In this document: piece by piece, positions 1 to 29,170 of the stretch
Position numbering within the stretch: the stretch's first letter is position 1
Layout of the letters: each line of letters starts with the position of its first letter
Virus record (IMG/VR): IMGVR_UViG_3300043781_000014
Location: 1-64,000 of that record
Origin: an uncultured virus (IMG/VR IMGVR_UViG_3300043781_000014)
Taxonomy: Duplodnaviria; Heunggongvirae; Uroviricota; Caudoviricetes
DNA length: 64,000 nt
Strand: one strand, 5' to 3'
The notes under the pieces: model-generated
Database searches by the model: none
Told to the model about the DNA's origin: nothing
Seen by the model: only the letters and a program-made list of their open reading frames with translations
Made by a program: the position numbers and the translations under genes

Positions 1-645
1 CTTAAATTTGATATTGAACCTTATCCTAAACAAGATAGCACTCACTACTCAGTAGGTGATACAGAAGAGCGCTTGATCCGTGATCGTCAAGAGAATAAAG
101 TTTATACAGAAACTGAATTACTTAAAGCCTTTCCTAACTATGATTGGAATGGCAATAATGGCGAAGTAGTTAAGCCTATTAAGCCTAAGGTTGTTAAAAA
201 GGTTAATAGGCATTTTGCCCCAGTATACGCTATTAGTACTAAGACTATTCAAGTCTTTCAGTTTGAGTCTATTCGTTCATGTGCAGAAACTCTAGGTGTA
301 GGTGAACGTAATATTAAGCACTGCTTAGCTGATAAGAAAGGTTCTCTTGGTGGTTTTGTCTTTTGTAGACCAGATGATTACACTTCGGAGCTTGCTAAAG
401 AATTAGTAGAAAAAGCTAAGAATAGTCCTAAGTATAATCATGATTTCATCGTTGATGGTAACTGGGTAGAGGGAATGACTAAAGTTCGAGAGATTGTAGG
501 AGCTAGTCGTTCTTCTATTCATAGGGCAATTGATGTTAACCGTAGAGAGGTTAAAGGACACACAATTGATATTCCTAAGCCTAAGGATATAGTTAAGCAT
601 TATAAATCTGTTTATCAGCCTTTGGCTACATATTTAATTAGTTAA
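1..645 (+). CDS. 5'-partial protein: C-terminal tail of a Mom-like domain followed by NUMOD1-like HTH modules
   Basis: Frame 1 is open from base 1. LKFDIEPYPKQDSTHYSVGDTEERLIRDR nearly matches the C-terminus of ORF 26587-28434. FESIRSCAETLGVGERNIKHCL...GGFVF is NUMOD1-like. Confidence 0.7.
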   Translation, partial: LKFDIEPYPKQDSTHYSVGDTEERLIRDRQENKVYTETELLKAFPNYDWNGNNGEVVKPIKPKVVKKVNRHFAPVYAISTKTIQVFQFESIRSCAETLGVGERNIKHCLADKKGSLGGFVFCRPDDYTSELAKELVEKAKNSPKYNHDFIVDGNWVEGMTKVREIVGASRSSIHRAIDVNRREVKGHTIDIPKPKDIVKHYKSVYQPLATYLIS

Positions 646-741: not shown

Positions 742-766
742 AAGTTAAGGAAAGGAAGTTATTAAA

Positions 767-3133: not shown

Positions 3134-3230
3134 AGGTTCATTAATTCATTTCGATTTCGATTTAATACATTTACATCCATATACTACTTTTGTATTTTCT
3201 AAGGCACCTATTAATTTAGGTGTCTTTTTT
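3134..3230 (+). ncRNA. candidate ~100-nt sRNA (promoter-terminator cassette with no ORF)
   Basis: TTGAAA 3097 and TATTATAAT 3119-3127 upstream; terminator AAGGCACCTA-TTAATT-TAGGTGTCTTTTTT 3201-3230. Confidence 0.45.
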
Positions 3231-3285
3231 GTATTTTAAGTTCAACCTATATTAAAGAGGATAATAGAAAGTAGGTGAAATTATA

Positions 3286-4317: not shown

Positions 4318-4320
4318 GTA

Positions 4321-5034
4321 ATGGCTCAAATATCAGATTTAATTAGTAATGAGTCTATTAGAGGTCTCCATGAGTTCTTTAACAGACAGGTAGATGAGAA
4401 ACAGATCACTGAATCGTATACTAAGGGTTTAGCTAATGAATTAAAAAAGGCCTTTGGTAATCTTGCAGTTAGGGATAATGGATCTAGTGTATCTGTTGCC
4501 TATCGAATTTTGAATGACGCTAATAATGAGAATGTTGGCTTTTATGACTTAAAGCAGGCGTTTGCTCGCTCCTCTAAAGCTAAGCCTACTAAAGATGGTG
4601 GTTGGTATATTAGAATACCAATTTCAAATCGTGCAACAGAGTATCGGCAAGCTTTTGGGCGTAAATTATGGGACACTATTAGTCATACTGAGTTTGGTAC
4701 TACTTCTAGTGCAGATGAGAATATAGCTAGGTTTCAAAAGATTTTATCTAATGCTGGGGGAGTTAATAGTAGTCCAATTGCTTATCAATGGAAGTCTACT
4801 AGTGTGACTCGTGAACAGTTTGGTAGTTCAGCTACTAGAGGTCATTATGTTAGTTTCAGAACCGTTTCAAATAAGTCAGATCCTAACTCATGGCTTATCA
4901 ATAAATCGGGTATGAATGCAAAAATTAATCAAGAAACAGAAAATGAACAACAAGCACAAGAGGTCGCTAAAGTTGTACAACAGGCAATTGAAAAGATTAT
5001 AGACAGATATAATAAGGCAGGTGAGAATAGTTAA
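4321..5034 (+). CDS. neck/tail completion structural protein
   Basis: GGWYIRIPI and YVSFRTVSNKSDPNSW motifs; synteny. Confidence 0.65.
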   Translation: MAQISDLISNESIRGLHEFFNRQVDEKQITESYTKGLANELKKAFGNLAVRDNGSSVSVAYRILNDANNENVGFYDLKQAFARSSKAKPTKDGGWYIRIPISNRATEYRQAFGRKLWDTISHTEFGTTSSADENIARFQKILSNAGGVNSSPIAYQWKSTSVTREQFGSSATRGHYVSFRTVSNKSDPNSWLINKSGMNAKINQETENEQQAQEVAKVVQQAIEKIIDRYNKAGENS

Positions 5035-5879
5035 TGAGTATTGAATTAGTAGATCAGCACATAGTAGATGAGGTTAATTCCCTCTTAAAAGGTATACTTG
5101 CTAATCCCTATATTATAAAACAGGAAATACTTAGCCAACTTCCCGACAAAATTGTAGATAACTTTATTAATACATACGGAATTGGAAAGGGTAATCATGG
5201 GGTTGAAATTCCTCTTTATTTTGCTTTTCCTCAAACTCCTCCTAAAACAGCTTTCTTATTAGCGCAGTTTAAGGGGTCACAGGAAGATGAGGATAATGCA
5301 GTATTAGGTAATTATCAAGGAGACTTAACTTCTAATGATAGTGGTAAGCTAACTCATGAGAAGCTACCTATAATCGTTGATGGTAAGCAGGCTTATTTAC
5401 AGCCTAGTCAACCCATTAAAGATGTTTATTCTCTTCCACAAACTAATGTGTATGAGGTAAAGGATAATAAGGTCTATATTCCTTATTTACCTATCTATAA
5501 TAAAGATTCTAAATTTGATTTGTTCTATATAATTAAGGAAGAAAATACAGGTCAGTCTTATCCAATAGGTATAAATACCATAGAAGCTGTAACAATAGAT
5601 TTTATCTCCAATAATACAAATACTATTCGTTGTCTTTCTGGAATATTTGTTTATATTGAAACCTATTTGCGAAAGTCATTAGAGGATAATGGCGCTGTCT
5701 TTTTACCTAGTATTGAGTTAAATGGTATGGATATGGTTCAAGACGTAAGTACAGCAGAGAATAGTCTTGGTGGTCAACAATTGTACTATCGCCGATTAAC
5801 TGTAAACTATCATGTAACCCAAACGATTAAACAGAACATGAATCAAACATTAGATAAGATTATTTTAGGTGGTGAATAG
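5034..5879 (+). CDS. tail terminator-like structural protein
   Basis: Synteny before the sheath; SNNTNTIRCL and YYRRLTVNY motifs. Confidence 0.6.
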   Translation: MSIELVDQHIVDEVNSLLKGILANPYIIKQEILSQLPDKIVDNFINTYGIGKGNHGVEIPLYFAFPQTPPKTAFLLAQFKGSQEDEDNAVLGNYQGDLTSNDSGKLTHEKLPIIVDGKQAYLQPSQPIKDVYSLPQTNVYEVKDNKVYIPYLPIYNKDSKFDLFYIIKEENTGQSYPIGINTIEAVTIDFISNNTNTIRCLSGIFVYIETYLRKSLEDNGAVFLPSIELNGMDMVQDVSTAENSLGGQQLYYRRLTVNYHVTQTIKQNMNQTLDKIILGGE

Positions 5880-5880
5880 A

Positions 5881-6077
5881 TTGGCGAAAAAAGATCAGAA
5901 GTTAACCCTTTATTCTTTAAACGAGTTTCTTGCTACGGTTAAGGGAATGGCTAAGTATCGAAAATTAACTGATATACAGCTTGCTGGATTTAGTAACTTA
6001 ATGCGTTCTAAGATATGCTTTTTGTATACGATCCGCACGTATATCTTGAAGAATTAGACCATTATATTAATGGTTAA
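5881..6077 (+). CDS. small conserved pre-sheath protein, 1-base frameshift near 6012
   Basis: TTG start after AGGTGG. QLAGF motif continues in the -1 frame as MLFVYDPHVYLEELDHYING*. Confidence 0.55.
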
Positions 6078-6106
6078 TATTGTTAAGTAGAAAGGAACGG
6101 GATAAA

Positions 6107-8050
6107 ATGGCACTAATTCCTTCATCTGATACTATGAAGCGAATCTACCCAAAGTTTTATAATTCACGTCCTCATGTAGAAACGAGTTATGATGACTCAG
6201 CCTTAACTAATCAATCTTCCGATTCAGAAAAGAATATCTTTTTGCTAGGTTCAGCAACAGAAGGTAATCCTAATAATGTTTATGAAATTAAGTCATCTGC
6301 CAGCGCTCGTAAGATCTTTGGTTCTGGTGACTTAGTAAAGGCAATGGAATTGATTTGGAATCCAACTGGTGACTACTACCAAAATGGTGGTAAGGTTTAT
6401 GCTATGCGGGTTGAAAATGCTACGCAAGCTTCACTAGAAGAAGGTCCTATCACTATTACTTCTAAAGTTTTTGGTGCTAGTGCTAATAAGATTGGGGTTT
6501 CATTTACTCGGGACGCTTTATCACAGGGTTATACTTTACGGGTAGAATACGAACCACAAATGTACGCTAAGAATTACACTAACATCGGTAATATCTTTGC
6601 TATTTACCACGGTGGTCGTCAAGCTACAGCTAAGTACTATGGTTACAAGGTTGTAGGTAATGTTGCTCGTGCTAATAAGTTTATCTTAGCTATGGGTGAT
6701 GATCCTAAGAATATGCAAGTAGTTCGTGAATTAGACCTTACTAAGGACTCATTTAGCGAAGTACAAAAGCTCTTATCTGCTATTAACGCAACACCGGGAT
6801 TTCAATCTACAGTTTTGAAGACTTGCGCTCGCATCAGCACTGCGGACTTAGACTTAACTCCGGGTGACGACTATGTAATGATTGGTACAGAAGATGAACC
6901 AACTACTGTTACTAGTGTTTATGGTGACTTGAAGTTATCCACTCGAATGGACCCTTACATTTCAGTAAGCATTAATTCATTAGGTGCGCCTACAGGTGTT
7001 CAGGCTACTCCTACTGCTGATGGTGCTACTATTACTGCTACACCAGTTAAGAAAGATATTCAAATTTTTGCTAATGAATATCTTTCTGGTGGAGACGATG
7101 GTCAAGTACCTATTTCATGGGCTGATAAGTTTAAGAATGTTCATGGTAAGAATGTTTACTACATTGTTCCATTAACAGCCGAAGAAAATGTTCATGCTGA
7201 ATTAGCTGAATTCCTTAGTGAAGAAAACATTTTAGGCTATAACTACATGTCCTTTGTAGGTGGTGGCTATAACGAAGACTTTAACTATGCAATTAATCGT
7301 CAATTAGGCTTGCAATCAAATCGTGTAGCTTTAGTTGCTAACTCTGGTACCTACACTAACTTGTCGGGTAATGAAGTTCATATTCCTGCTTACTTAATGG
7401 CTTCTTATGTTGCTGGTATTGCTTCTAGTCTACCTATTGGTACTCCAGTTACTCATAAGCACCTTAATTTAGTAAGTTTGGATCAAAACTTCGATGGGGA
7501 CGAACTTGATCAATTAGACGCTAATGGTGTTATTGCAATTGAAAACCAAGTACGTAGAAATACGTCTGGTGGATTTACTATTGTAGAAGATGTAACTACT
7601 TACAACTCTACTAATGAACCTACTAAGAATGTTGTTTCATTACAGGAAATTACAGACTTCTTATTTGACGACTTGCGTTACTACCTTGAAGACAACTTCA
7701 TCGGTATGCCAGTACATCAAATTACAAGTGGTTTGATTAATACCTTTATTGAAGCATTCTTGAAGCAACGGGTTTCTGATGGTATGTTAGCTAGTTATGA
7801 CGGTACATCAATTCAAACTGTAATTAATGGTAACCAAGCCTATGTATCATTCTCCTGCGCTCCATCACGTGGGTTACGAACTATCTATGTTGCTGGTACT
7901 TATACTAACTTTGTATCAAGTGCTGGTGGTAATGGTGGTTCTAACTCTGATTATGATGGGATTGAAGGTAATGGAATTAATCCAGACACGGAGTCCGTGG
8001 CTGGGATAGAAAATCAAAATCGTGTCCATACCAATTATACGGATATGTAG
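6107..8050 (+). CDS. major tail sheath protein
   Basis: RPHVET, IFGSGDL, YYIVPLT, LDQLDANGVI, IVEDVTTYN motifs of K-like sheath proteins; RBS GAAAGGA before ATG 6107. Confidence 0.92.
   Translation: MALIPSSDTMKRIYPKFYNSRPHVETSYDDSALTNQSSDSEKNIFLLGSATEGNPNNVYEIKSSASARKIFGSGDLVKAMELIWNPTGDYYQNGGKVYAMRVENATQASLEEGPITITSKVFGASANKIGVSFTRDALSQGYTLRVEYEPQMYAKNYTNIGNIFAIYHGGRQATAKYYGYKVVGNVARANKFILAMGDDPKNMQVVRELDLTKDSFSEVQKLLSAINATPGFQSTVLKTCARISTADLDLTPGDDYVMIGTEDEPTTVTSVYGDLKLSTRMDPYISVSINSLGAPTGVQATPTADGATITATPVKKDIQIFANEYLSGGDDGQVPISWADKFKNVHGKNVYYIVPLTAEENVHAELAEFLSEENILGYNYMSFVGGGYNEDFNYAINRQLGLQSNRVALVANSGTYTNLSGNEVHIPAYLMASYVAGIASSLPIGTPVTHKHLNLVSLDQNFDGDELDQLDANGVIAIENQVRRNTSGGFTIVEDVTTYNSTNEPTKNVVSLQEITDFLFDDLRYYLEDNFIGMPVHQITSGLINTFIEAFLKQRVSDGMLASYDGTSIQTVINGNQAYVSFSCAPSRGLRTIYVAGTYTNFVSSAGGNGGSNSDYDGIEGNGINPDTESVAGIENQNRVHTNYTDM
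7991..8050 (+). repeat. sheath 3' end, diverged direct repeat of 9797-9853
   Basis: CCGTGGCTGGGAT is exact at 7995-8007 and 9801-9813; ESVAGIENQNRVHTNYTDM vs ETVAGIEAQNHVQTHYAD. Confidence 0.85.
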
Positions 8051-8164: not shown

Positions 8165-9853
8165 ATGAAAACAGATCAGCAATTTAAACAGGAAGTATAT
8201 GATTTAGTAGAGAATGAATATAAATTTTTAGAAGATTATAAAGGATCAATGACCAAAATTAAAGTTCTTCATACTAAATGTGGGTATACCTATAAAGTAA
8301 CACCTAATAACTTTTTAAGAGGAAAGCGTTGTCCTAAATGTGCTGGCAATATAAGAAAAACAACTAGACAGTTTAATCAAGAGGTAAAAAGTTTAGTAGG
8401 TGACGAATATACAATTCTAACGCCTTATAAAAATGCTAGGACGAAAATTTTAGTGAAACACAATAAGTGTGGTTATACTTATAAAGTAACACCTAATGAT
8501 TTTTTAAAGGGTAATCGTTGTCCTAAATGTATTAAGAATAGAAAGAAGAATACAGATGATTTTAAACAAGAAGTTTATAATCTTGTAGGTGACGAGTATA
8601 CTGTTCTAGGTAAGTATAAGAATAGTAAAACTAAGGTATTACTAAGACATAATAAGTGTGGGAATGAATGTGATGTATTACCTAGTGCTTTTTTAAGAGG
8701 TACTAGATGCCCAAAGTGTTTTAAAAATAAGAGGAAAACAACTGAACAGTTTAAAGAAGAGGTTTATAACCTTGTAGGTAGTGAATACACTGTCTTAAGT
8801 GAATATAAGAATAGTAAAACTAAGGTATTAATGAAGCATAATAAATGTGGATCTAGTTTTTATACTTTTTCTAATAACTTTTTAAAGGGTAATCGTTGTC
8901 CTAAATGTGCTGGCAATATGAGAAAAACAACTAGACAGTTTAGTCAAGAAGTATACAATTTAGTAGGGGACGAGTATTCTGTTTTAGGTGAGTATGTAGG
9001 TAGCAACATTAAAATTTTGATGAAACATAATAAGTGTGGGAATGAATATGAAGTATCACCCAGTGCTTTTTTACAGGGTGCTAGATGCCCTCAATGCAAA
9101 GGGGGAGTTAGAAAAACACCTAAGCAGTTTGAACGGGACTTCTATTCTGTTGCACAAGGTAATTATAAATTACTAAGCGTATATAAAAATTCACATACAA
9201 AGGTCAAGGTTAAACATTTATCTTGTGGGAATGTGTATATGGTTAATCCTACTGCTTTTTTACGAGGGGAGAGGTGTCCTCGATGTTTTGGGAATCATAG
9301 AAAAACACAGCAAGAATTTGAAGATATAATATATAATTTAACAGAGGGAGATTATGTAGTATTAAGTAAGTATAAAAATGCTAATACTAAAGTTGTTTTT
9401 GAGCATAAAGTATGTGGAAATAGTTTTAGCATGGTTCCTTATGATTTTATAGGTAGTGGTCATCGTTGTCCTTGGTGTTTTCAATCAGGTTCTAGTCATG
9501 GTAATTCTATGATTGATAAAGTGTTGAGTAAATTAGGAATTAAATATTATAGGGAGTTTAAGTTTAGTGGGTGTAAGGATAAGCGCAAACTTCCATTCGA
9601 TTTTTATTTACCAGACTATAATTTATGTATAGAATATGATGGTAAACAGCATTTTGATAGAGATTCTAAATTTTATTCTACAGACTTAGTTAAACACGAT
9701 AGAATAAAAGATCAATTTTGTTTAGATAATAATATTAATCTCTTAAGGATAAAGTATACATCTGATACTTTATCTAGTGTTAGAAAATTGATATTAGAGA
9801 CCGTGGCTGGGATCGAAGCACAAAATCATGTACAAACTCACTATGCAGACTAG
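8165..9853 (+). CDS. free-standing homing-type endonuclease: 7 x 63-aa Zn-binding repeats + PD-(D/E)XK/Vsr-like nuclease domain
   Basis: Repeats HxxC-x16-CxxC; C-terminal LPFDFYLPDYNLCIEYDGKQH...D..KD.FC....I.LLRI. Confidence 0.8.
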   Translation: MKTDQQFKQEVYDLVENEYKFLEDYKGSMTKIKVLHTKCGYTYKVTPNNFLRGKRCPKCAGNIRKTTRQFNQEVKSLVGDEYTILTPYKNARTKILVKHNKCGYTYKVTPNDFLKGNRCPKCIKNRKKNTDDFKQEVYNLVGDEYTVLGKYKNSKTKVLLRHNKCGNECDVLPSAFLRGTRCPKCFKNKRKTTEQFKEEVYNLVGSEYTVLSEYKNSKTKVLMKHNKCGSSFYTFSNNFLKGNRCPKCAGNMRKTTRQFSQEVYNLVGDEYSVLGEYVGSNIKILMKHNKCGNEYEVSPSAFLQGARCPQCKGGVRKTPKQFERDFYSVAQGNYKLLSVYKNSHTKVKVKHLSCGNVYMVNPTAFLRGERCPRCFGNHRKTQQEFEDIIYNLTEGDYVVLSKYKNANTKVVFEHKVCGNSFSMVPYDFIGSGHRCPWCFQSGSSHGNSMIDKVLSKLGIKYYREFKFSGCKDKRKLPFDFYLPDYNLCIEYDGKQHFDRDSKFYSTDLVKHDRIKDQFCLDNNINLLRIKYTSDTLSSVRKLILETVAGIEAQNHVQTHYAD

Positions 9854-11134: not shown

Positions 11135-14100
11135 ATGTCAGTGTCACGATATACAGTAAAACTTGATATTGGCGATGGTCGTTTTAAATCTCTTGCTAGT
11201 CAGTTAAACAGATTAAATAAAGAAATTGATCGGGTCTATCAACGAGGTCAAGATAATAACAATACTGTAAGTGACAAAGACTTAACTAACTTACAAAGTC
11301 ATTTATCTGGTCTTGTACAGGCAATTGATGATAGAAAGCAACGGACTAATGAACAATTAGACCAAGCAAGAATTGTTAATGATACAGATCAGATTGCTAA
11401 ATTTTTAGACGAATTAAAAGAGTTGACAGACGCTGGTAAGGAGTCTAATCAACTCTTTTCTTCTTATAAATTTAATCAAGTAAACAATTATCGAGTTAAT
11501 TCTTCAAGAGCATTTAGAACTAATGACTTCGATAAACTTAATTCTGATTTTCAACATGATTTAACTGATTTAAAAGATAGTATTGGTAAGTTAAGTAACC
11601 GTAGTAAGATTTTAGAAAGACGTTGGGATCGTGGTGTTTTTAATGGTGCGATTACTTATGAACGGTGGCAAAAGTATCAAGACCAAAATCAAACCCAAGC
11701 CAACGAGTATGATAATTATAATAATCAATATCAAGAATTAAAAAAGCAGTATGAAGACCAGTTACAACAATTAACTAAGGAACGAAATGTTTTAAATAAT
11801 CAGATTGAGTCTGGTAAAGGTAGTCAAGATGATATTACTAAACGATCTGCATTAGACGAACAGATCATAAAAATGCGAAAGGTAGATCAGACTCTAAGCG
11901 ATTTAGCTAATACACTCAGTAACACTGGAAGTCGGATTAATCTCTCTAATGCTAAGCTACATGATAAACAGACTGTAGATACTGTTGTTTTACCTGCTAA
12001 GGATTCACTAGAAGGTTTTCTTAGTACCCATAAGCGAATTCTTACTCGTTCTGCTATTGTAGGTGCAGTTGGAAATACTATACGTGCTTATAATACAGGA
12101 AATAGTCTTATTTTAAATAATTTTGATAATATTAAGTCAACTGTTTATGCTTCTGGTTTAGGAGAAAATAAGGTAGAAAATACTTTAGCAGACGCTGGAT
12201 TTAGTATGGGCTATGGTTTAGATGAGATGAGTAATTATCTTAATAATTATACGTCCGCTACTGGTAATGCTAATTTAAGTCGAAATCAAATTAAAGACGT
12301 AACAAGGTCTTGGGCTGGATTGTCTCGATATTCTGGTGCTAATGATTCTACTACTCAAAACTTGGAATACGTAAGTGCTATGACCTCATTAGCTGGTACT
12401 AAAGAATTTAGTAGCTTAGCGAATGCAATTCAAAATGAGATTACTAATTCTGGTATGAATGCAAAGGCTAATGAGCAACAACAAGCCCTAGCTAATATGT
12501 ATCAAACAGCTTTTAATGTTTCTGGTAGTACTTTATCAACTAGAGATCAAAAAGAAATTGCTGGTTTTCAAGGGGTTATGGCTCAAACTGGTAAGTCTGA
12601 ATTACAAGGACAACAGGGGGCGCAAGCCTATGCTGGTTTAGTCTCAGCCTTTCAGCCTAGTAACATAGCTTCTCTTAGGTTATTTACTGGCAATGATCCA
12701 GCTTATCAAACAAGAGAAGGTCATGCTCAAGCTATTTTTGATATGCAGGACGCTTCTAAACATCCATATAAATACAAGACTGCTATTGATAACCTTTTAA
12801 GAAATGCTAAGACACAAGCTCGTACTAAAAACGGTGATGTTACAATTGCTTCTGCTAATCTTTATAAATTATCAAAAGAGAGCGGTGGTAATCTTTCACC
12901 TCAACAAGCTAAAGACTTAGTAGAGCTTTATAAGCATAAGAAGTTTACTAAGAAGAATGTTAATAAGATTGTTAAGGGTAGTGGCAAAGGGAATAAAGAT
13001 AAGTATGATAAAACTGGTGCTAAGACCATTCAGCAACAGCAAAAGGCTATTCAAGAAAGTGAAGTTAAAGCTTCCCACGCTTTAAATCATTTCACCCATA
13101 AGCTTAATTGGATAAATAAGACTTTTTGGATTAGTAATATTATGTCTGGAGTAGGAACGTCTATGGGTGTTTCTATGCTAGGTGATCTAGGAGTAGGTCT
13201 TATTTATGGAGGTTATGTTAAGAGAGGTTATCAAAAGATAGCAGGTAGTCTTAAGAATCGGGGATTTAAAGGTACTTTATCTGCTATTAAAGGTAAGGGT
13301 AGTAGCCTAAAAGATACCGTAATTTCGATTGTAAGCAATGCTAAGAGCGATAAGTCTAGTTCTAGTGTATCTGGTACTAAAACGATTAAAAGAGCTAAAT
13401 CGGGGCTTAAAATTAATCCTACGACACTTGTAAAATCTGGATCTAAAGTTCCTGCTAGAAAGATAGGTAAAGCTGGTGCTTTAATTGGTGTTGGTATGGG
13501 TGCTTATGCTTTATATGATAGTTATAAGAATGATAATAAAGCTCATGCTTCTACAGTTAACCCTAAAGAAGATAATTCTCGTTCTAAGAATAATAAACAG
13601 TCTAATAAGAAAGCTTCTAGTATGACTGTTAGTAAGTTAGCTAAGCAGGTTCAGAACAAATATAAGCGACTTCATAAGTCAGAGTGGCGTTTAATTGATT
13701 ATCTTAATACTTATTGGGATATTTTCTTGCGTAAAGCTAAAGAATCTGGTAGTAGCTCTAGCTCTAGTGATGACGTTGGGAGTGACTCAGGAGGAGATTC
13801 TGCTAAGTCTCCAGAAGAGTGGAAGGATGATATTAAAAAAGCCGCCAAAGCTATGGGACAGAATGTATCAGACGAACAAGTCAATATGATTGTTTCCATG
13901 ATTAAGGCTGAGTCTGGAGGAGATCCTACTGTTACTCAGCAGATTAGTGATATTAATTCGGCTAATGGTCATCCAGCTCAAGGTCTTTTACAATACGTCC
14001 CTTCAACTTTTGAACATTATGCAGTTAAGGGTCATACAAATATTAAATCTGGTTATGATCAATTACTTGCGCTATTTAATGACTCTAACTGGGCTAGAGA

Positions 14101-14476
14101 TATTCATTATGGTGGTGGATGGGGTCCTACTGGTAACCCTATTAAGACTAATGCTACTGGTGGTATTCGTTATCATGCTACAGGTAACACATATAGTACA
14201 CGGGTAGCCCAAGCTCCTACTAGTCAATTTAGTATGAATTTACAGCATCCGTTAGAGTTACAAACGCTTTTTAAACAGAATATTAGAAAGTCTCAAAACT
14301 ATATTAAAGTTCAGAGAAATCGTGGAAAAGTTAATGTTAATGTAAACGTTAATCGGAGTAATATTCTTAAGGTTCAGCAGGTTGTAGACCAAACAATTAA
14401 TGAGGAATTTAACCTTTGGTTGCAGTCTAAGAAGACTGAACAGTATGCAAGCTTTTATAGTAATGAAGTTGGGTAG
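11135..14476 (+). CDS. tape-measure-like protein 1 with C-terminal lytic transglycosylase (SLT) domain
   Basis: Coiled-coil N-terminus; AESGGDP...DINSANGHPAQGLLQYVPSTF motif. Confidence 0.8.
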   Translation: MSVSRYTVKLDIGDGRFKSLASQLNRLNKEIDRVYQRGQDNNNTVSDKDLTNLQSHLSGLVQAIDDRKQRTNEQLDQARIVNDTDQIAKFLDELKELTDAGKESNQLFSSYKFNQVNNYRVNSSRAFRTNDFDKLNSDFQHDLTDLKDSIGKLSNRSKILERRWDRGVFNGAITYERWQKYQDQNQTQANEYDNYNNQYQELKKQYEDQLQQLTKERNVLNNQIESGKGSQDDITKRSALDEQIIKMRKVDQTLSDLANTLSNTGSRINLSNAKLHDKQTVDTVVLPAKDSLEGFLSTHKRILTRSAIVGAVGNTIRAYNTGNSLILNNFDNIKSTVYASGLGENKVENTLADAGFSMGYGLDEMSNYLNNYTSATGNANLSRNQIKDVTRSWAGLSRYSGANDSTTQNLEYVSAMTSLAGTKEFSSLANAIQNEITNSGMNAKANEQQQALANMYQTAFNVSGSTLSTRDQKEIAGFQGVMAQTGKSELQGQQGAQAYAGLVSAFQPSNIASLRLFTGNDPAYQTREGHAQAIFDMQDASKHPYKYKTAIDNLLRNAKTQARTKNGDVTIASANLYKLSKESGGNLSPQQAKDLVELYKHKKFTKKNVNKIVKGSGKGNKDKYDKTGAKTIQQQQKAIQESEVKASHALNHFTHKLNWINKTFWISNIMSGVGTSMGVSMLGDLGVGLIYGGYVKRGYQKIAGSLKNRGFKGTLSAIKGKGSSLKDTVISIVSNAKSDKSSSSVSGTKTIKRAKSGLKINPTTLVKSGSKVPARKIGKAGALIGVGMGAYALYDSYKNDNKAHASTVNPKEDNSRSKNNKQSNKKASSMTVSKLAKQVQNKYKRLHKSEWRLIDYLNTYWDIFLRKAKESGSSSSSSDDVGSDSGGDSAKSPEEWKDDIKKAAKAMGQNVSDEQVNMIVSMIKAESGGDPTVTQQISDINSANGHPAQGLLQYVPSTFEHYAVKGHTNIKSGYDQLLALFNDSNWARDIHYGGGWGPTGNPIKTNATGGIRYHATGNTYSTRVAQAPTSQFSMNLQHPLELQTLFKQNIRKSQNYIKVQRNRGKVNVNVNVNRSNILKVQQVVDQTINEEFNLWLQSKKTEQYASFYSNEVG

Positions 14477-14484
14477 GTGATTGA

Positions 14485-17400
14485 GTGAGCAAGCAAGAAG
14501 ATACAAATATTAAGGTTACGGCTGATGTTGACCCCGCCAAAGCGAGTCTTCGAGAAATTGAGGATCTAGTTAATTCTACCCAACAGAAGATTAATCGGGT
14601 ATTTAGTACTGTACAAGATAATAACGGTCAGATTAGTAATAAGCAGTTAGCTGGGGTTCAAAATGGCTTTGGTCGTTTGGACGAAGTTAAATCTGCTTTA
14701 GATAATGCTCTTAACCAAGCTAAGGCAACTCAAAATGGTTCTAAGCTAGAAGAAAGCATTAATACTTTAGCTCCTAAGTTAGATCTAGTTGTTAGTAGCT
14801 TAAGAGAGTTAAGATCTGGTAATAATAGTACTAAGCTTGATTCTATCTTTAATGCTCGTACAACTACTTCTCGTGCTTTTATAGACGGGAGTGCTACTAT
14901 TCGTGGTGAAGAGGGAGACTTTAGTCAACAAAACTTACATTATGAAAGTTTAGCTAGAGAAAGTCGATCTGATATTCATAATTTAGCTAGTTCGCTTAAA
15001 CGTGAAATGGGTAACTTAGACGTTGGTAGGAAGTCTGGTTATATTTCATATAATCGTTATCACCAGTACAAAGCCTCGTCTCAGTCTATTCAAAGCCGTT
15101 TGCAAGAACAACGAGATCGGTTTGATTCTCCTACTGGTGATATTGCTCGTTTTGCTAGTTATTATCAAAATTTACAAACTCAGGCAAAGGAAGCTAATAA
15201 TATTGCTTCTGCACCGGGCGCAACTACTGAGCAGGTTCGTTATGCTAGAGCTTTAGACGAACAAGTTAAGCACCTAGAAAAGGTTAATGAGCAATTTAAG
15301 AAGCAGGAAGAAGAATTACGAACTGCCGAAAAGAATTCAGAGTCGTTTAATGATCGCCTTAATGATACTCAAGGAGTAACTATTGGTGATGACCCTAATT
15401 CTTTTATGGGTCAGCTTAATAAGCGTAAATATACTATTTTACGTGGTGCTATCTCTGCTGGGGGCGCTTCTATTGCTAGTGCTTATGCTCAAGGAAATAG
15501 TTTAAGACTTTCTAGTTTTGACGATATTAAGTCTACTGCATATGCTAATGGTGGTAGAGATGGTGAAGTTCTTAATACTCTAGGTGACTACGGTTATAAA
15601 TATGGTTATAATGGCGCAGAAATGGGTCAGTTTGCCAATGCTTATACTTCTACTACTGGTAATGTGGGGAGTACTAGAGATGTTGCTGGTGTTGCTCAGA
15701 CGTGGGCTAGACAGTCTCGTATCACAGGAGCTAATGCACAGAGTACTTTAGGGCTAGAACAGACTGTCGGTAATAGTGCTAATTTAAATTCTAGTCAGAT
15801 GAGTAGTGTCGGTAATGCAATTACTAACTCTATCATCAATTCTGGTATGAGTGCTAAGGCAACTGAACAGCAACAAGGATTATCCATGTTAATTCAGAAT
15901 GCAAGTAATCAAGGTCTTACTGCTCGTGACGAGAAGAACTTAGCGGGCTTCCAAGGTGCAATTGCTAGTGGTGGGGCACAGTTCCAAGGTACACAAGGCG
16001 CTCAAAATACTATGCAGTTAGCTCAAGGATTAGGTAATGTTAATAGACCCAATGATGAGACAGCTTTTTGCTCAGTCTAATCCTAGTCGCTATACAGGGG
16101 TAGAGGGTTCTGCTAATATGGTTTTTGATATGCAAGAGTTCCAGAAGAAACCATGGAAGATGAAAGGAATTCTCCAAAATGCTGAAAAAGATTTTGGTAG
16201 TCGCAAGGTTGCTTCCGCTAATCTATAGTCAGGCGACTGATGTTCCGGCAGAGACTATTGAAAAGTGGATTCAATTAGCGGATTCTGGTAAGTTAGACAA
16301 GAAGCATATAGATAAGCTAGAAAAATCATCTAGTGCAAGTAAAGAAGGCGGGAAAGCAGATCAGGACTATGATAAGACAGGAGCTTCACAACTTCAAAAG
16401 TATAATTCTGCATTAGCTGATTCTGCTATGAAAGCTAGTCAAGCTTTAGACGGTTTACGTGGTATTATTGCTAAGGCTTATAAAGCTGGTGGTGGGTTAT
16501 CTCCATTTGTTTCTGGTGTCGCTAGTGCATTTGGCGCTGGTGCTGGAAATCTTATGAGTATCTATGCTCTTGATAAGTTAAGAGGTAAAGGTGGTTCTGG
16601 AGGTGCTGGAGGGTCTGGTATCTTAGGGCGTATCTTTAAAGGTGGTAAATCATCTGTAGAAAAGGAAGCTGAAAAAGCAACTGCTAAAGCTGGAGAAGAA
16701 GCTGTTAAAACTGGTGCTAAATCAGTTTCCCGTTCTGGTATCAAAGCTACTGCTTCTGGTATTCTAAAGTCTAGTAAGCTAAGAGGTTTAGTTCGTGGTG
16801 CTAAAGCTGGGTTGCCGGGTGTTGGTGATTTAGTCTTTGGTGGTTTAGATCTAGCTACCTCTGTTGCAACTACTAAGAAAGGTACTAAAGCTCGTAGAAA
16901 AGCTGTTGGTTCTAGCTTAGGATCATCTGCTGGTAGTGTTGCCGGTGGGGTTGTTGGAGGACTGATAGGTTCAATTTTCCCCGGTGCTGGTACTGCGGTT
17001 GGTGCGGTTGCTGGTAGTGTAGCTGGTGGCTGGTTAGGTGATAAGTTTGGTGGTTTCCTTGGTGGTAAGATAGGTAAGTCTAAGGATAAAGCTATTAATA
17101 AAGCTAAAGGACAATCACTTAGAGACGCTCGTAAGACTGCAAGTAAGTATAATAAGTCTGGTGGCGTACTAAGAGGTATTCTAAAGAATGGTAAGCGATT
17201 CTTACCGGGGGTTGCTCTTGGCGTTGCTGGCTTAGGCTTAATGGACGATTTCTTTGGAGGTAAAGCTAAAGCTTCTTCAAAGAAGGATAGTGAGAAATCA
17301 GAAGCATGGCGTATTTTACGTGGTTATGATAAAATGCTTGACCATGCTATGCGAGTAGTTCAATCTGCTAAGTCTATTAAGAATGGTGGAGACTCTAGTT

Positions 17401-18234
17401 CTAGTAAAGATGGTGATGGCTCTGATATATCCGGTACTTCTGGTGAGGGAGAAAAGGCTATTCGGAGCGTTGCAAAAGCTATTGGTAAGAAGCTTGGTGT
17501 TGATCCTAAACTAGTTTATGCACAATTGATGCACGAAACTAATGGCGGTACTCATATGGCTGGTAAAAACAACTATGGTGGTATTGTTTATGCTGGTCAG
17601 AAAGGTGCTAAAGCTGGGTCTCATCAGCCAGACGGTAGTGGTAATTATGCAGACTTTGATAGCCTAGACGACTTTGCTAATGCTTATGCTTCTACTCTTC
17701 AGAAGATGGGTATTAATAGTAGTATTAAGTCTGTTAATGACTGGGCTAATCAGCTTCATAGTAAGGGTTACTTTACTGATTCTCCTGCTAATTATGCTGG
17801 GGGAATGGAAAGATTTGCTAAGCAGTATGCTGTTGGTGGTATTCGTCAATACGCTTCTGGTAGTCCTTTAATCACAGATCATCCAACTACTAATAATGGT
17901 AGTGATGTTTATGGTGAGGCTGGGACAGAAGCTTATGTACCATTAAATGCTGGTCATTACTTTAGTGGGCTTTCTACCTTTAGACGACTTAGCTGGTATC
18001 TTTGGTAAAAAGGTAGTTAATCCGGGAGTTTCTGAGTCTGGTGGAAAATCAACTACTATTAATCCAAGTTATAATATTAACCTTACGATTAATGGTGGTA
18101 CTGATGATCCAGATACATTAGCCCAAACAGTGGCTAATAAAGTAAGAGAAATGCTAAGTCAATATGATAGTCAGCAAGCAATGAGTAACCAGCAAACATT
18201 CTTTGCTAATGAAACTTCTGGACTTCTAGTCTAA
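14485..18234 (+). CDS. tape-measure-like protein 2 with glucosaminidase (GH73-like) domain; three apparent +1 frameshifts (~16045, 16226, 17980)
   Basis: Four consecutive ORF pieces join into one protein; HETNGG..NNYGGI..YADFDS..GYFTD; GEAGTEAYVPL; Gly-rich membrane-like segments. Confidence 0.75.
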
Positions 18235-24324: not shown

Positions 24325-24957
24325 ATGAAATATGCTCTTTATAACAATAAGGAAAATAAGTTTGTTAAGCTTTTAGCTACTCGAATGTTAAGTCATGAAA
24401 CTATTTATGAATTAACATCTGATGTGGAAGAAGTTAAAGAATTGACTGATAAGCCATATACAGAAGCAGAGCTACATCATTTTGAAGAAGTAGCTGGAGT
24501 AGAAAAAGGGTCTTTTGAAAATTACAAATTAAGTATGCAAGATGAGGAGGCTTATACGGTATATAATGCAGGAGATAAAGCTTTGCAATCTATCCATGAT
24601 TATTTGTGTATGTTAGATCCTCGTAATGTAGATAGTATTGCTGATTTTGTAGATCGGATTCAAACAACTATCTACAACTTGACTGATTTTGATATGGAAG
24701 AGTATTTTGAAGATAAAGATGATCCTCGTATGCACCTGCGACTAAATGGTTTTAATCGTCCGGTTGTTTTCATTGTTGAGTACACCTATAGCGATGACTA
24801 TGGTTCCTATACTAGCTCTGATGTTTTTGCTTATAGAGAAGATGCTGAGGGGTTTGTTAGAAAGTTGAAAGACTTACCATCTGGGGTATCTGATATATCA
24901 GTCAGTCCTAGGATTGTTTATCTTGATAAAGATAAAACTTTAGATAATGTTGATTAG
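24325..24957 (+). CDS. hypothetical protein, paralog of 23775-24308
   Basis: Collinear similarity through DFDVNAYLKDK / DFDMEEYFEDK. Confidence 0.7.
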   Translation: MKYALYNNKENKFVKLLATRMLSHETIYELTSDVEEVKELTDKPYTEAELHHFEEVAGVEKGSFENYKLSMQDEEAYTVYNAGDKALQSIHDYLCMLDPRNVDSIADFVDRIQTTIYNLTDFDMEEYFEDKDDPRMHLRLNGFNRPVVFIVEYTYSDDYGSYTSSDVFAYREDAEGFVRKLKDLPSGVSDISVSPRIVYLDKDKTLDNVD

Positions 24958-24970
24958 TCTTTAATAGAGG

Positions 24971-24999
24971 TTGACAACTATGGGTCTATGTTCTATACT
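24971..24999 (+). promoter_or_regulatory. consensus SigA promoter
   Basis: TTGACA-17 bp-TATACT. Confidence 0.85.
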
Positions 25000-25005
25000 A
25001 TGTTT

Positions 25006-25231
25006 ATGGTTAGGGACTAGCCATGGTAAAAGAGTTTAGTTCTGTAAGTTAGGTATTCAGAATACTGATGTAATATCCTAAATACTACTAGATGTTCCCA
25101 GAAACCACCTACTAAAGTGGGTGTGTAGTTCATTAATAATGTTCCTTATTTCAGTAGGGAAACTGTTTCAAACTTTTATCTGAATTCTTTGTTTGTTTTT
25201 CTTTGGCAGGGTTTGTCCCTGTTTTTTTTTT
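25006..25231 (+). ncRNA. candidate orphan IS200/IS605-type TnpB omega-RNA (scaffold 25006-~25133 + guide)
   Basis: 5' hairpin ATGGTTAG-GGA-CTAGCCAT; long central stem; GTTCCCAGAA; hairpin CACCTAC-TAAA-GTGGGTG; end TAGTTCA; terminator CAGGG-TTTGT-CCCTG then T run. Confidence 0.65.
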
Positions 25232-25275
25232 ATTTTAGCTATTGTATTTTAATTAAAGTGTGTTATACTATAGTC

Positions 25276-25398
25276 ATGGTTATGTTAATGAAGCATTTAG
25301 TCAGACTGGCAGTGACTCTATGTTTGTTTGCATTACCTCCTTTATATTAGATTAGTCGATTAAAAGAGTGCTTATCCGATTGGGTAGGTGCTCTTTTT
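25276..25398 (+). ncRNA. candidate sRNA with anti-Shine-Dalgarno motif, or leaderless 24-aa hydrophobic peptide mRNA
   Basis: TTGTAT...TG-n-TATACT 25264-25269; CATTACCTCCTTT; terminator AAAAGAGTGCTTATCC-GATT-GGGTAGGTGCTCTTTTT. Confidence 0.5.
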
Positions 25399-25475
25399 GT
25401 TTGGGTCTATATTAATTAATGACCACTAAGATATATCTTAAGTTTAACCTTTTATTTGAAAGGAAAGTGATTATA

Positions 25476-26416
25476 ATCGCGACTGTAAGCAACCAAACGG
25501 TTAGGTATTAGCTGTTTCAAAATTTCCTCTAAACGGGTATAGCTAAATAAATAGTAGTAATAAAAGAGAATAAGCTAGTAAGAGAGACTAAGCCCTGTAA
25601 TCTACTAGGGGTAGAGTTGACCAACCGTTCTAAATAAAAAGACTAACGACTAAAGTTCTAATAATTTATTAGATAAGAGCCTTATGGTGTAATGAGGAAG
25701 ATTCCTACTAAGGAATAAGATATAGTCTAATTTTATATGAAAGTATAAATATAATTTTTGTAATACCTCCAACCGAATTTATATTATGGCAAAGAACCAC
25801 TTAATTGCACGTGCCCAAAGCTTGACAGCTAATAGAAGTTACGGTACTGAGGGTGTATACGAAATCGGATCCATTAACTAGCATAGTGGTGGTTAACAGT
25901 AATGTTAATTGAAAAATTCTACTAAACGGGTAAAGCTGAATAACTGAATTGAATAGGCTAGTAAGAGAGGCTACGTCCAGAGGTGGATAGAGCTAACCAA
26001 CCGTTCTAAAACAAAAGACTAACGATTAAGTCCTTATTAGATTAAGATAAGGTAATGTAGAACCTCTTATAGAGAGGAAGATATAATCTAATCTTTTTAG
26101 AAATAAGTAGTTAATATAATGTATGCCAAGGGAACACGTATACCTAAAATATACGGGTTCTCTTACACTAGAAAGATTTCGTATGGTACGAGATAACCTT
26201 GCATCTAAACAAATGGATATAGCCCATCTGGGAGAAGACATCTTGCAAGCTGACGTTTTAACCATTTCTGTAATGGATAGCGTTACTAAAATGGTAGTCG
26301 AAGCGTTTTACGGATGCAGTGCTTCCACCTACAACACCAGTTATAGAGCCAATCAAATCGTATCTGAATCTATTGAGTTTCTTTACCTCAGCTCTTCGAC
26401 TGGCTCACAGTCATAA
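25476..26416 (+). CDS. major tail tube protein, join(25476..25501,25761..25874,26122..26416), 144 aa
   Basis: Spliced product (M)ATVSNQTVNTSNRIYIMAKNHLIARAQSLTANRSYGTEGVYEIGSIMPREHVYLKY...GCSASTYN...EFLYL is collinear with K/Twort tail tube proteins. Start is ATC (or GTG 25467). Confidence 0.9.
25502..25760 (+). ncRNA. group I intron 1 (259 nt, no ORF) in tail tube gene
   Basis: P1 AAACGGU/GCUGUUU with U-G at the splice site; P10 AGGUAUUA/UAAUACCU; P7 GACUA/UAGUC with AAGAUAUAGUC; terminal G. Confidence 0.9.
25875..26121 (+). ncRNA. group I intron 2 (247 nt, no ORF) in tail tube gene
   Basis: P1 CCAU/GUGG; P10 GCAUA/UAUGC; P7 GAUUA/UAAUC (compensatory relative to intron 1); terminal G. Confidence 0.9.
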
Positions 26417-26503: not shown

Positions 26504-26586
26504 ATATACTTTATTTCTTTTGATAAAATATACTCTTGAATGATAAATTAATTGGGGTATAATTATATAAGAAAGAAGGAATAGTA

Positions 26587-28434
26587 TTGAAAAAATTAAC
26601 TTTTGAAGAATTTAATTATAGGGCACAGCGTATACTAGGATCTAGTTATGTTTTTTATCCTCCATATAAGGATATGAAAACGCCTGTTAAATATAAGCAT
26701 TTAGTGTGCGGTACTACTGGAACCTTAATTCCTGATAACATTTTTAGGGGTAAAGCTAAATGCAAGTATTGTAGTATGAGGAGGAGATCTGGTAGACGTA
26801 TGATAACAGACGATGAGTTTAGGAAAAGGCTACATAAAGTCCGCTCTAGCGATGATATTATTTTACTTGAGCCTATACATGGTATTTTTAAGAAAACCAA
26901 GGCAAAATGTCTTGTGTGTGGATATGGTTCAAAAGGTGAATGGACTCCTCTTCCAGTTAACTTATTAAAGGGTAAAGGGTGTCCTAATTGTGCAGGTAAT
27001 GCCCCTAAAACACCAGATAAGGTAATTAAAGAAGTCAAAGATTTAGGGAAGGGTGAGTATGAATTATTAGGAACTAAGAGAACTAAAAAAGATGGTTTAT
27101 GGTTACATTTACTCCATAAAGAGTGCGAAAATGATTATTGGGTTCGTGACTATAGTTTCATACATGGTTATCGTTGTAAATTTTGTGCTAATAAAGCAAC
27201 AGGTGACAGATGTAGGCTATCCTTAGACGAAGTTAAGCAACGAATTACAAGGGTTGCTGATAGTCGTTATACATATGTAAGTGGTAATTATAAGAACAAC
27301 CAAAGCCCTATCTATGTAAGGCACAACGTATGTGGTACTGTGTTTAAAACCACATGGGGGCAACTTAGTGCTAATAGGGGATTGTGTCCTAATTGTGGTT
27401 CTTCTAATGGTGAGCAGGTGATTATGAACTATTTAGTATCACACAGGATTAGTTACTCTTATGGTTATTTAATTCCAGATTTAATAGATAAGAAAAACCT
27501 TCACTTTGACTTCTGGTTGTCTCAATTCAATACTGCTATTGAATATGATGGCCAACAACATTTTAATCCTGTCGATTTGTTTGGGGGTAAAGAGTGTTAT
27601 GAATTGCAAAATAAACATGATGAAATGAAAGATAATTATTGTAAGAAAAAAGGTATTAATTTAATTAGGATTAAATATAATGAAAGTATTAAGGACACAT
27701 TAGACTATTATCTTTTACCTTTAGTAGATAAGCTTAGTGACGTTGAGTTTAGAAAGGTAGAGAGTACAGATCTTAACGAGTTAATGATTAGGTATCATTA
27801 TTTACACCGTAAAGTGACTACTTCTTATTGTTATGGTTTATATTATCGAGGAAGTCTGGCAGGAATGGTAACATATACAAGACCTAGAATTAGCCTTGCT
27901 CAGTCAATCTCGCCTTTAGCTAATAAAGATAACACCCTAGAACTATCCAGACTATACATAAAAGATGAAGTAAGCCAAAACTTAAAGAATATTACTTCTA
28001 AGTTTGTCTCATGGACTTTAAGACAGTTAAAGAAAGAACAAGATGGTAATTGGTTTATTATTTCCTTTGCAGATCAAGGTATGCACCATACAGGAGCAAT
28101 TTACCAAGCTACTAATTTCTTATACTGTGGGACTACTAAACATCGTGAATACTCTTGGAATGGATATGGTAAGCATGGCGGTGTATGGGAAAAAGGTCAT
28201 TACTATAGGTATATGATAATTAGTCCTATCAAATATCGTTACATTATGTTCTTAGGATCAAAGACTTTTAAGAAACAAGCCCGTAAGACCCTTAAATTTG
28301 AAATTGAACCTTATCCTAAACAAGATAGCGTTCACTATTCTGTAGGTGACACAGAGGAAAGACTAATTCGAGACCGAGAAACTGGTAAGATTTGGAAAGA
28401 GTCTGAGTTAGTTAAACATCTAAAGAAAGATTAA
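26587..28434 (+). CDS. Zn-repeat + PD-(D/E)XK endonuclease fused to C-terminal Mom-like (GNAT-fold) DNA-modification domain
   Basis: Four CxxC-type repeats; HFDFWL..FNTAIEYDGQQH; then HYLHR..YGLY..LELSRL..IISFADQGMHHTGAIYQATNFLYCG. Confidence 0.75.
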   Translation: MKKLTFEEFNYRAQRILGSSYVFYPPYKDMKTPVKYKHLVCGTTGTLIPDNIFRGKAKCKYCSMRRRSGRRMITDDEFRKRLHKVRSSDDIILLEPIHGIFKKTKAKCLVCGYGSKGEWTPLPVNLLKGKGCPNCAGNAPKTPDKVIKEVKDLGKGEYELLGTKRTKKDGLWLHLLHKECENDYWVRDYSFIHGYRCKFCANKATGDRCRLSLDEVKQRITRVADSRYTYVSGNYKNNQSPIYVRHNVCGTVFKTTWGQLSANRGLCPNCGSSNGEQVIMNYLVSHRISYSYGYLIPDLIDKKNLHFDFWLSQFNTAIEYDGQQHFNPVDLFGGKECYELQNKHDEMKDNYCKKKGINLIRIKYNESIKDTLDYYLLPLVDKLSDVEFRKVESTDLNELMIRYHYLHRKVTTSYCYGLYYRGSLAGMVTYTRPRISLAQSISPLANKDNTLELSRLYIKDEVSQNLKNITSKFVSWTLRQLKKEQDGNWFIISFADQGMHHTGAIYQATNFLYCGTTKHREYSWNGYGKHGGVWEKGHYYRYMIISPIKYRYIMFLGSKTFKKQARKTLKFEIEPYPKQDSVHYSVGDTEERLIRDRETGKIWKESELVKHLKKD

Positions 28435-28555
28435 GGGGAATTAAGAAAGAGGTATAACAACGAAACTGTTGGAGAATATTCTTTCTTTTTATAATTAAGT
28501 ATTGACAACCTGTCTATTCTATTGTATTATAATAGCTGTAAAGGAGTTGTTAAGT

Positions 28556-29170
28556 ATGCGAAGAAAAACTGATAAAGAATTTAAACAAGAATTGCATGAT
28601 TTAGTAGGTGATGAATATACAGCTTTAGATCATTATGAGAAAGGAACAATTAAGATTCATATTAAGCATAATAAATGTGGTCATGTGCTATATGTTTATC
28701 CTTTGGCTTTTTTACAAAGACCTCACTGCCCTTATTGTAGTGGTCGCCCACGTTACACCCCAGCAGAGTATAGGGAGTATGTAAAAGAAATGACTAATGA
28801 TGCGTACGAGGTTTTAGACGATTTTGTAAATAATAGGACACCAATTCGTTATAAGCATAAGAAATGTGGTACTGTATTTAAGACTCTTCCTAATACCTTT
28901 AGTGTTGGGTCTGTTCGCTGTCCTGTATGTGCTAATAAGGTTCGTTCTAAGAAGCAATCCTTAACCACTGAGGAATTTAAGGAGCGGGTTCATAATTTAC
29001 CACATGGAGACGAATTCGAAGTTCTATCTGAATATAAAGGCTACCACCAACGTGTTACCTTTAAGCATAAGAAGTGTGATACTGTATGGATGACTACCCC
29101 AGCCAGTTTCTTTCTTAGTAAACATAAATGTCCGGTATGTGCAATTAATTCAACTAGAAAGGTTAAGTAA
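28556..29170 (+). CDS. protein of three Zn-binding repeats with no nuclease domain
   Basis: Same KHxKCG...CPxC repeat as 8165-9853; own TTGACA promoter at 28502 and AAGGAG RBS. Confidence 0.75.
   Translation: MRRKTDKEFKQELHDLVGDEYTALDHYEKGTIKIHIKHNKCGHVLYVYPLAFLQRPHCPYCSGRPRYTPAEYREYVKEMTNDAYEVLDDFVNNRTPIRYKHKKCGTVFKTLPNTFSVGSVRCPVCANKVRSKKQSLTTEEFKERVHNLPHGDEFEVLSEYKGYHQRVTFKHKKCDTVWMTTPASFFLSKHKCPVCAINSTRKVK

Follow-up and report, generated by a model that had tools for sequence, protein, structure and literature searches.

In the single-chain restriction-modification enzymes of Types IIG and IIC, S-adenosylmethionine-dependent methyltransferases are combined with a shared target-recognition domain. 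The gene described here resembles these enzymes in that a nuclease and a DNA-modifying domain are held in one polypeptide, but its modifier is predicted to be a tRNA-dependent enzyme of the GNAT fold. It is located in a 64,000-nucleotide (nt) stretch of DNA from an uncultured virus of the Caudoviricetes (positions 1 to 64,000 of the IMG/VR record IMGVR_UViG_3300043781_000014; from here on, the window). The encoded protein of 615 amino acids (aa) consists of an array of Zn ribbons and a Vsr-like nuclease followed by a domain of the Mom family.

The chemistry of Mom has been solved only recently. According to Silva et al. (2026; PMC13219725), Mom of phage Mu transfers glycine from Gly-tRNA(Gly) to the N6 of adenine in double-stranded DNA. 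The key active-site residues proposed there are H58, Y59, R111, S124, D149, R151 and Y159; a helix-turn-helix (HTH)-like insertion (~175-209) is needed for activity, and the protein is a tight dimer, the monomeric W48A mutant of which is nearly inactive. The words "fusion", "fused" and "HNH" do not occur in the main text of that paper. Mom domains fused to restriction endonuclease-fold endoDNases in jumbo phages are described in section 3.4.7 of Iyer et al. (2021; PMC7824862), together with the prediction that such proteins protect and attack. Our gene is the same kind of fusion, and the same protect-and-attack logic can be proposed for it. Whereas the cases in that section come from jumbo phages and concern a prediction, the present gene belongs to a clade of myoviruses of roughly 130-150 kb, in which standalone Mom occurs alongside fused and unfused forms and one nuclease is replaced by another.

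Another relative is the "putative Hef-like homing endonuclease" of Campylobacter phage CP30A (AFR52373.1), matched by BLASTP with an E value of 3e-12 over residues 250-544, a stretch that begins at the last Zn ribbon, takes in the nuclease and reaches into Mom. The order of Zn-ribbon repeats, Vsr-like nuclease and Mom-like C-terminal region is the same in both proteins, and counterparts of R455, S471, D496 and Y506 are kept in the CP30A protein. Its Mom-like domain is, however, too diverged to be detected by the Pfam Mom model, whereas that of the window is canonical and 58-69% identical to standalone Mom proteins. Hef-type enzymes have been placed among the EDxHD (Vsr-like) homing endonucleases, the prototype of which is I-Bth0305I (Taylor et al., 2011; PMC3239194), and according to a citation in PMC2988022 Hef of phage U5 cleaves nrdB. 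Our literature search found no paper on a fusion of Mom with a homing endonuclease; the LIMEstone and DC4 papers name Hef-like enzymes but say nothing of Mom. The first-pass annotation of the window, made from the sequence alone, did not know this architecture as a characterised system, a statement which is outdated given the fusions of Iyer et al. (2021) and the layout of the CP30A protein. Both the design of the gene and the idea of cutting and protecting have been published before, and this is no new kind of system.

The reading that we prefer, with a probability of roughly 55%, is that a selfish homing endonuclease gene has become fused to a useful anti-restriction gene, the two activities being independent of each other.

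Domain layout and conservation of the fusion protein

The fusion gene (locus A) and its parts are located as follows; dN/dS stands for the ratio of non-synonymous to synonymous substitution rates.

26587..28434, plus strand: fusion gene of Zn-ribbon array, Vsr-like nuclease and Mom; 615 aa, TTG start
26587..27408, plus strand: array of four Zn ribbons, predicted to bind DNA, residues 1-274 (invariant ligands, secondary structure of the model, dN/dS 0.06-0.13)
27409..27738, plus strand: Vsr-like (EDxHD-type) PD-(D/E)XK nuclease domain, residues 275-384 (fold model, invariant residues)
27739..28434, plus strand: Mom domain (GNAT fold), residues 385-615, with a short C-terminal tail (Pfam, PHROGs, PDB sequence, Foldseek)
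26536..26563, plus strand: promoter-like site ahead of the fusion gene (TTGAAT, 16 nt, TATAAT; consensus scan, 10/12 matches)

The domain order Zn repeats, PD-(D/E)XK nuclease, Mom had been claimed in the first-pass annotation and is confirmed by profile, alignment and fold evidence. In PHROGs the protein matches phrog_559 over residues 1-518 (E 1.5e-77), homing endonuclease families over 266-377 and the "Mom-like" phrog_1384 over 380-598. Invariance was assessed in an alignment of 35 sequences, comprising the window protein and 34 database proteins (P0011, of 401 aa and 66% coverage, was left out), and the Zn ligands H38, C41, C59, C62, C249, C267 and C270 do not vary in it. AlphaFold modelling of the full-length protein from a 35-row alignment gave a mean predicted local distance difference test score (pLDDT) of 81.5 and a predicted template modelling score (pTM) of 0.40, the domain arrangement not being confident. 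Prediction of a complex between the nuclease and Mom domains returned no verdict (score 0.00, without controls) and speaks neither way.

At the junction, the DNA around the N-terminus of Mom contains neither an in-frame start codon nor a ribosome-binding site, which indicates a true translational fusion with Mom made solely within it. A purine run resembling a ribosome-binding site (GAAGGA) is found 8 nt before the TTG start of the fusion gene. The promoter-like site upstream is weak evidence, because such sites are as numerous in shuffled sequence.

The C-terminal domain matches the Pfam Mom family PF25680 over the whole profile (residues 387-578, profile positions 3-202 of 202) with 107.8 bits against a cut-off of 27.1 (E 7.3e-31; 108.8 bits in a six-frame search). 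It also matches phrog_1384 (E 1.7e-41) and, by sequence, the Mu Mom structure PDB 8bv8 (E 9.2e-10). The structure prediction proposed in the first-pass annotation as a check of the Mom/GNAT assignment bears it out: in a Foldseek search with the full-length model the top match was 8bv8_B (E 7.9e-11, template modelling score by target 0.74), followed by GNAT acetyltransferases. The motifs on which the assignment had been based are all present, as H404-Y405, L451-E-L-S-R-L456, S493-F-A-D496, H501, G503, I505-Y-Q-A-T-N-F511, Y513 and G515. In a pairwise alignment to 8bv8, the chain numbering of which is the native one minus 9, H404, Y405, R455, S471, D496 and Y506 align with H58, Y59, R111, S124, D149 and Y159 of Mu Mom. 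The fused Mom is therefore probably active, with six of the seven proposed active-site residues kept and all six invariant. Common to the two proteins are the full-length Pfam match, the GNAT fold and these six counterparts. In contrast to Mu Mom, the domain here is the C-terminal third of a 615-aa protein, placed behind a nuclease; identity is ~22% in the Foldseek alignment, and the HTH-like insertion, judged by sequence alignment only, can be aligned but is ~12 residues shorter.

Modelled alone, the nuclease domain reached a pLDDT of 92.7. In a VIA comparison I-Bth0305I (3r3p_B) ranked first (Z 9.7, root-mean-square deviation 3.1 Å, 93 aligned residues), with Vsr (1cw0_A) at Z 9.3; Foldseek also ranked 3r3p first (E 0.013), then 1cw0/1vsr, although with weak E values of 0.013-0.05. 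The nuclease profile had no matches among PDB sequences at E <= 10, so the domain was placed by fold comparison alone. E276, D308, E319, H325, D345 and K348 are invariant, and D308, H325 and D345 are so also in 13 copies, fused and Mom-less. The residues E276, D308, H325 and D345 were matched to the EDxHD motif by order and spacing, the D-to-H distance of 17 being that of D196-H213 in I-Bth0305I. By its modelled fold the nuclease is thus assigned to the EDxHD/Vsr-like homing endonuclease family, with I-Bth0305I (PMC3239194; PDB 3r3p) as the best structural match and the invariant E, D, H and D in the same order. I-Bth0305I differs in being intron-encoded, in binding DNA through a NUMOD/HTH region and in having no Mom. 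Pfam finds no N-terminal region of that type in the fusion, where four Zn ribbons are used instead. The HNH label that PHROGs gives to phrog_559 was considered and rejected as a misnomer here, there being no HNH among the Pfam matches and the catalytic domain folding as PD-(D/E)XK.

The same ORF (open reading frame), of 615 or 618 aa, is found at the syntenic locus in four other viral contigs (L003-L006) with 92-100% identity and many synonymous differences. Among 52 database matches 41 have Mom, and in 35 of these a nuclease is present at the N-terminus; 34 further fused database proteins, 34-97% identical, can be aligned over the full layout, and the P0002 cluster holds 63 member sequences. 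The first-pass annotation had named a sequencing artefact as a possible refutation, and the fusion proves to be real, because the ORF recurs at the same locus in four contigs, besides the 34 database proteins. In comparisons among the window and L004-L006, dN/dS ranged from 0.06 to 0.13 in the Zn array and from 0.03 to 0.07 in Mom. Five of the six nuclease pairs gave 0.07-0.10; the sixth, with a value of 0.56, differs by just 8 non-synonymous and 3 synonymous changes. Strong purifying selection acts on each of the three parts. By tblastn against named phages with the whole protein and with nuclease plus Mom, respectively, 0 of 718 and 0 of 732 matching records cover at least 80% of the query; hence no named phage has a close full-length copy.

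Fused, unfused and mobile relatives

Besides the fusion gene, the following features of the window concern the second Mom gene and the nuclease and Zn-ribbon families:

1..645, plus strand: 3' end of the second Mom gene (locus B), with the end of Mom and an I-HmuI NUMOD-like DNA-binding tail; the gene is cut by the start of the contig
27898..28137 (approximate), plus strand: near-identical block shared with the second Mom paralogue (~87-100% DNA identity; flanks 47-58%)
~28228-28356, plus strand: second near-identical block (sliding DNA identity of locus A and locus B)
8165..9853, plus strand: Mom-less Zn-ribbon/Vsr-like nuclease paralogue of 562 aa, free-standing between the tail sheath and tail chaperone genes (nuclease profile match at 9500-9805, E 6.4e-34; phrog_559, E 3e-157)
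28556..29170, plus strand: Zn-ribbon-array protein without a nuclease domain, 204 aa from ATG (phrog_559 positions 119-307 only)

The locus-B ORF of the window is 92% identical to residues 508-721 of P0023. Contig L007, which matches window positions 1-7125 at 99.86%, holds the whole 713-aa gene after the major head protein gene, encoding Zn ribbons, nuclease, Mom and the NUMOD-like tail. Locus B is a single fused ORF in L007, L008 and L013, with the ATG of mom kept in frame. In L009, L010, L012 and L014 the nuclease (378 aa) and Mom (405 aa) are encoded by separate genes with a 4-nt overlap, and in L011 the gene after that of the nuclease encodes Mom joined to a complete HNH endonuclease. In L015 a standalone 254-aa Mom precedes a nuclease gene and an intron-free phrog_985 gene. 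Thus the relatives hold every intermediate: standalone, overlapping, fused and C-terminal HNH fusion. In the locus-B Mom (window 1-645; L007, L009, L012 and others) the core of the C-terminal I-HmuI-like HNH domain is gone and the NUMOD-like end is kept, with dN/dS of 0.10-0.27; complete C-terminal HNH versions are found in L011, P0037, P0040, P0042 and P0043.

Fused and unfused forms with nearly the same Mom can have very different nucleases. In L007 and L009 Mom is 96.8% identical and the nucleases 47%; in L008 and L009 the values are 91.6% and 36%. The 35 fused proteins make 595 pairs, which were compared by pairwise identities: 12 of the 21 pairs with Mom at least 85% identical have nucleases at most 55% identical, and none of the four pairs with nucleases at least 85% identical has Mom at or below 65%. 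Going by these identities and by the standalone, overlapping and Mom-less forms, the nuclease and Mom halves are separable and exchangeable. Synonymous divergence (dS) differs several-fold among segments of one pair. The DNA of locus A and of L007 locus B is 75.7% identical overall by sliding identity, with a longest identical run of 70 nt. The segmental dS differences and the near-identical blocks in the paralogues point to recombination or gene conversion.

The nuclease family occurs also without Mom. There are three nuclease-domain copies in the 75.3-kb parent record, two of them Mom-less (8165-9853 and ~65.7 kb), and many more such copies in relatives, adjoining conserved structural genes for the major head protein, phrog_985 virion protein, portal and sheath. 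A copy directly upstream of phrog_985 is present in L005, L006 and L015 and absent from the window and L004. The copies in L005 and L006 were considered as intron-encoded, but exon mapping places them upstream of the phrog_985 gene, free-standing. With I-Bth0305I as the top fold and a multi-copy free-standing family, the suggestion of a homing-type, selfish nuclease in the first-pass annotation holds. The protein at 28556-29170 has three endonuclease-type Zn ribbons only and its own promoter-like site (28502-28530). In its relatives there are stops upstream of the ATG, and dN/dS is 0.07-0.13; this is perhaps not a gene in decay but one whose product binds DNA in a domesticated or helper role.

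Beyond close relatives, an exhaustive Mom-domain search gave 1518 representatives at E <= 0.001, and among the best 150 of them 21 are at least 340 aa long. Pfam analysis of 18 distant long Mom proteins revealed an N-terminal NUMOD4/HNH, a C-terminal GIY-YIG, an RNase_T exonuclease and a ParB_N domain in one protein each, YunG in two and Mom only in 12. Other endonucleases joined to Mom are a C-terminal HNH (P0037, P0040, P0042, P0043, L011), an N-terminal HNH (P0092) and GIY-YIG (P0163). Fusions to ParB_N, RNase_T-type exonuclease and YunG domains are carried by the distant homologues P0148, P0096, P0130 and P0168. In the sequences searched, Mom fusion is concentrated in this phage clade and scattered elsewhere.

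Explanations of the fusion

In the preferred reading, a free-standing Hef-like/Vsr-like (EDxHD) homing endonuclease gene would have become continuous in frame with a mom gene that was already in place and is probably active. The Zn-ribbon array and the nuclease would cut a long site in alleles that do not have the gene, leading to gene conversion around the locus. Independently of this, the Mom domain, like Mu Mom, would attach glycine from Gly-tRNA(Gly) to adenine N6 throughout the phage DNA, which would thereby be protected from host restriction. The fusion may have arisen because the nuclease gene sits flush against the start codon of mom, so that loss of the 4-nt stop/start overlap would join the frames. 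In the N-terminal position the selfish gene would be permanently linked to the useful one, and Mom would be lost with any frameshift or stop arising in the selfish gene; the case would illustrate a selfish gene tying itself to a useful gene. Homing is made more probable by the length of the Zn-ribbon array, which is typical of long-site homing enzymes and unlike a general restriction nuclease, and indirect signs of it are the presence/absence variation, the replaced nucleases and the mosaic flanks. The reading as a whole is favoured by the membership of the nuclease in a multi-copy homing family, the separability of the two halves, the nuclease replacement, the traces of recombination, the other endonuclease types joined to Mom and the apparently active Mom.

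Several observations weigh against this reading. The linkage of nuclease and Mom looks selected, not accidental: the two are adjacent or fused in every arrangement seen, this phage has two nuclease-Mom genes, dN/dS is ~0.03-0.13 in all three parts, and in the distant Hef-like enzyme of CP30A a Mom-like domain is retained, counterparts of R, S, D and Y included. Outside the clade, 66 more distant viral loci hold 65 complete Mom ORFs, with lengths of 195-263 aa and none reaching 300 aa; as Mom is standalone there, fusion is not a general accident of mom genes. The chemistry of the fused Mom may also differ from that of Mu, since the essential R151 aligns with G498, although a shift of a few residues is possible in this pairwise sequence alignment. 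G498 is invariant across the fused set, and so is the nearby H501. Persistent linkage, two copies per genome and strong constraint give some weight to explanations in which nuclease and Mom act together, either for cutting and protection or with Mom as an integral part of the enzyme.

The first of these, proposed also in the first-pass annotation, is that Mom marks the DNA of its own phage, so that the nuclease joined to it leaves this DNA intact and cuts unmodified DNA, whether from the host or from co-infecting phages. This would be an analogue of single-chain restriction-modification with momylation replacing methylation. Both active sites are present in one chain and invariant in 35 proteins, adjacency or fusion is kept throughout, including overlapping genes like those of restriction-modification systems, three nuclease classes occur on Mom, and the prediction has been published (section 3.4.7 of Iyer et al., 2021; PMC7824862). 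We nevertheless consider it unlikely, if far from negligible: an array of four Zn-ribbon units like that of long-site homing enzymes would find few sites in a foreign genome, the same genome has Mom-less copies of the nuclease family, nucleases are swapped beside nearly identical Mom genes, and standalone Mom proteins of 58-69% identity exist in relatives.

More tentative still is a site-targeted form of cutting and protection, in which the Zn array would bring Mom to the long site of the nuclease. Adenines glycylated (momylated) there would make the carrier and the converted genomes immune, and unmodified co-infecting alleles would be cut. If true, the gene would be a site-specific, tRNA-dependent cut-and-protect gene drive, and this would account for the attachment of three unrelated classes of endonuclease to Mom. 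The clade offers a natural series on near-identical backgrounds, from standalone Mom through overlapping genes and N-terminal fusions to C-terminal HNH fusions and HNH-less remnants, and this makes the published cut-and-protect prediction directly testable.

It is rather improbable that Mom is a working part of the homing enzyme, either dimerising so that two nicking domains break both strands or modifying the enzyme's own recognition site against re-cutting. The tight dimer of Mu Mom with its nearly inactive monomeric mutant (PMC13219725), the Mom-like domain of the distant Hef-like enzyme and the two fused copies in this phage are consistent with such a role. Mom-less family members are, however, common and show no visible handicap, unfused forms exist, and the full-length model, with its pTM of 0.40, shows no confident arrangement of the domains.

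The odds are poorer again for domestication, by which endonuclease-derived modules would tether Mom to DNA and the nuclease would no longer drive mobility. The HNH-less NUMOD-like domain kept on the locus-B Mom and the conserved, nuclease-less Zn-ribbon protein next to the fusion gene would fit this. Yet the catalytic residues of the nuclease are invariant, its dN/dS is low in five of six pairs, and nuclease replacement together with presence/absence variation argues for ongoing mobility.

An assembly or gene-calling artefact joining two genes can be dismissed, even though the record is a metagenomic fragment (CheckV 57%) and near-identical blocks in two Mom paralogues could mislead assemblers, as the same ORF is found in four contigs at 92-100% identity with many synonymous differences and in the 63-member P0002 cluster and 34 database proteins alignable over the full layout.

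The window and its gene neighbourhood

The window comes from an uncultured large myovirus and covers its tail and baseplate region, with genes for the sheath, chaperone, tape measure/lysin and a 2086-aa fibre protein. All of its genes are on the plus strand. The parent viral record is 75.3 kb long, with a CheckV completeness of 57%. Among named phages, Lactobacillus phage LfeInf has the most similar tail sheath (60%), followed by other large Lactobacillus myoviruses (~47%); a search for near-identical DNA in named phages gave no match. Rfam at the gathering threshold and ARAGORN found nothing across the window. The order of phrog_985 virion protein gene, fusion ORF, Zn-ribbon ORF, 330-aa ORF and large fibre gene is kept in all four other contigs with the fusion ORF. 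Two features lie upstream of the fusion gene:

25467-26416, plus strand: phrog_985 virion protein gene, just upstream of the fusion gene, interrupted by two group I introns without endonuclease genes
24958-25466: ORF-free stretch with a strong promoter-like site at 24971-24999 (TTGACA, 17 nt, TATACT)

The exons of the phrog_985 gene are at ~25467-25502, ~25762-25875 and ~26123-26416. Its introns give sub-threshold matches to RF00028 (31.5 bits, E 9e-6, and 17.1 bits, E 0.19) and contain repeated segments of 28-45 nt (families D1-D3, 83-87% alike). Among relatives the first intron is absent from L006, and L015 has none. The split gene is reminiscent of the three-intron orf142 of phage Twort.

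The ORF-free stretch contains a terminator-like hairpin at 25205-25223 and a second hairpin at ~25360-25397, and possibly encodes small RNAs. In L005 and L006 the matching interval is occupied by a free-standing nuclease gene. The preceding 210-aa gene, unbroken in the window (24325-24957), is split by 1.2-1.5 kb in L003 (3740-5261) and L006 (3068-4265). No copy of the Zn-ribbon nuclease was detected in these inserts, which are another insertion polymorphism. Further upstream, three consecutive ORFs (1113, 531 and 609 aa; 11135-18008) all match the tail-lysin/tape-measure family phrog_1047 with overlapping or successive profile ranges, which suggests a duplicated or split gene; the counterpart in L015 is one 1241-aa version.

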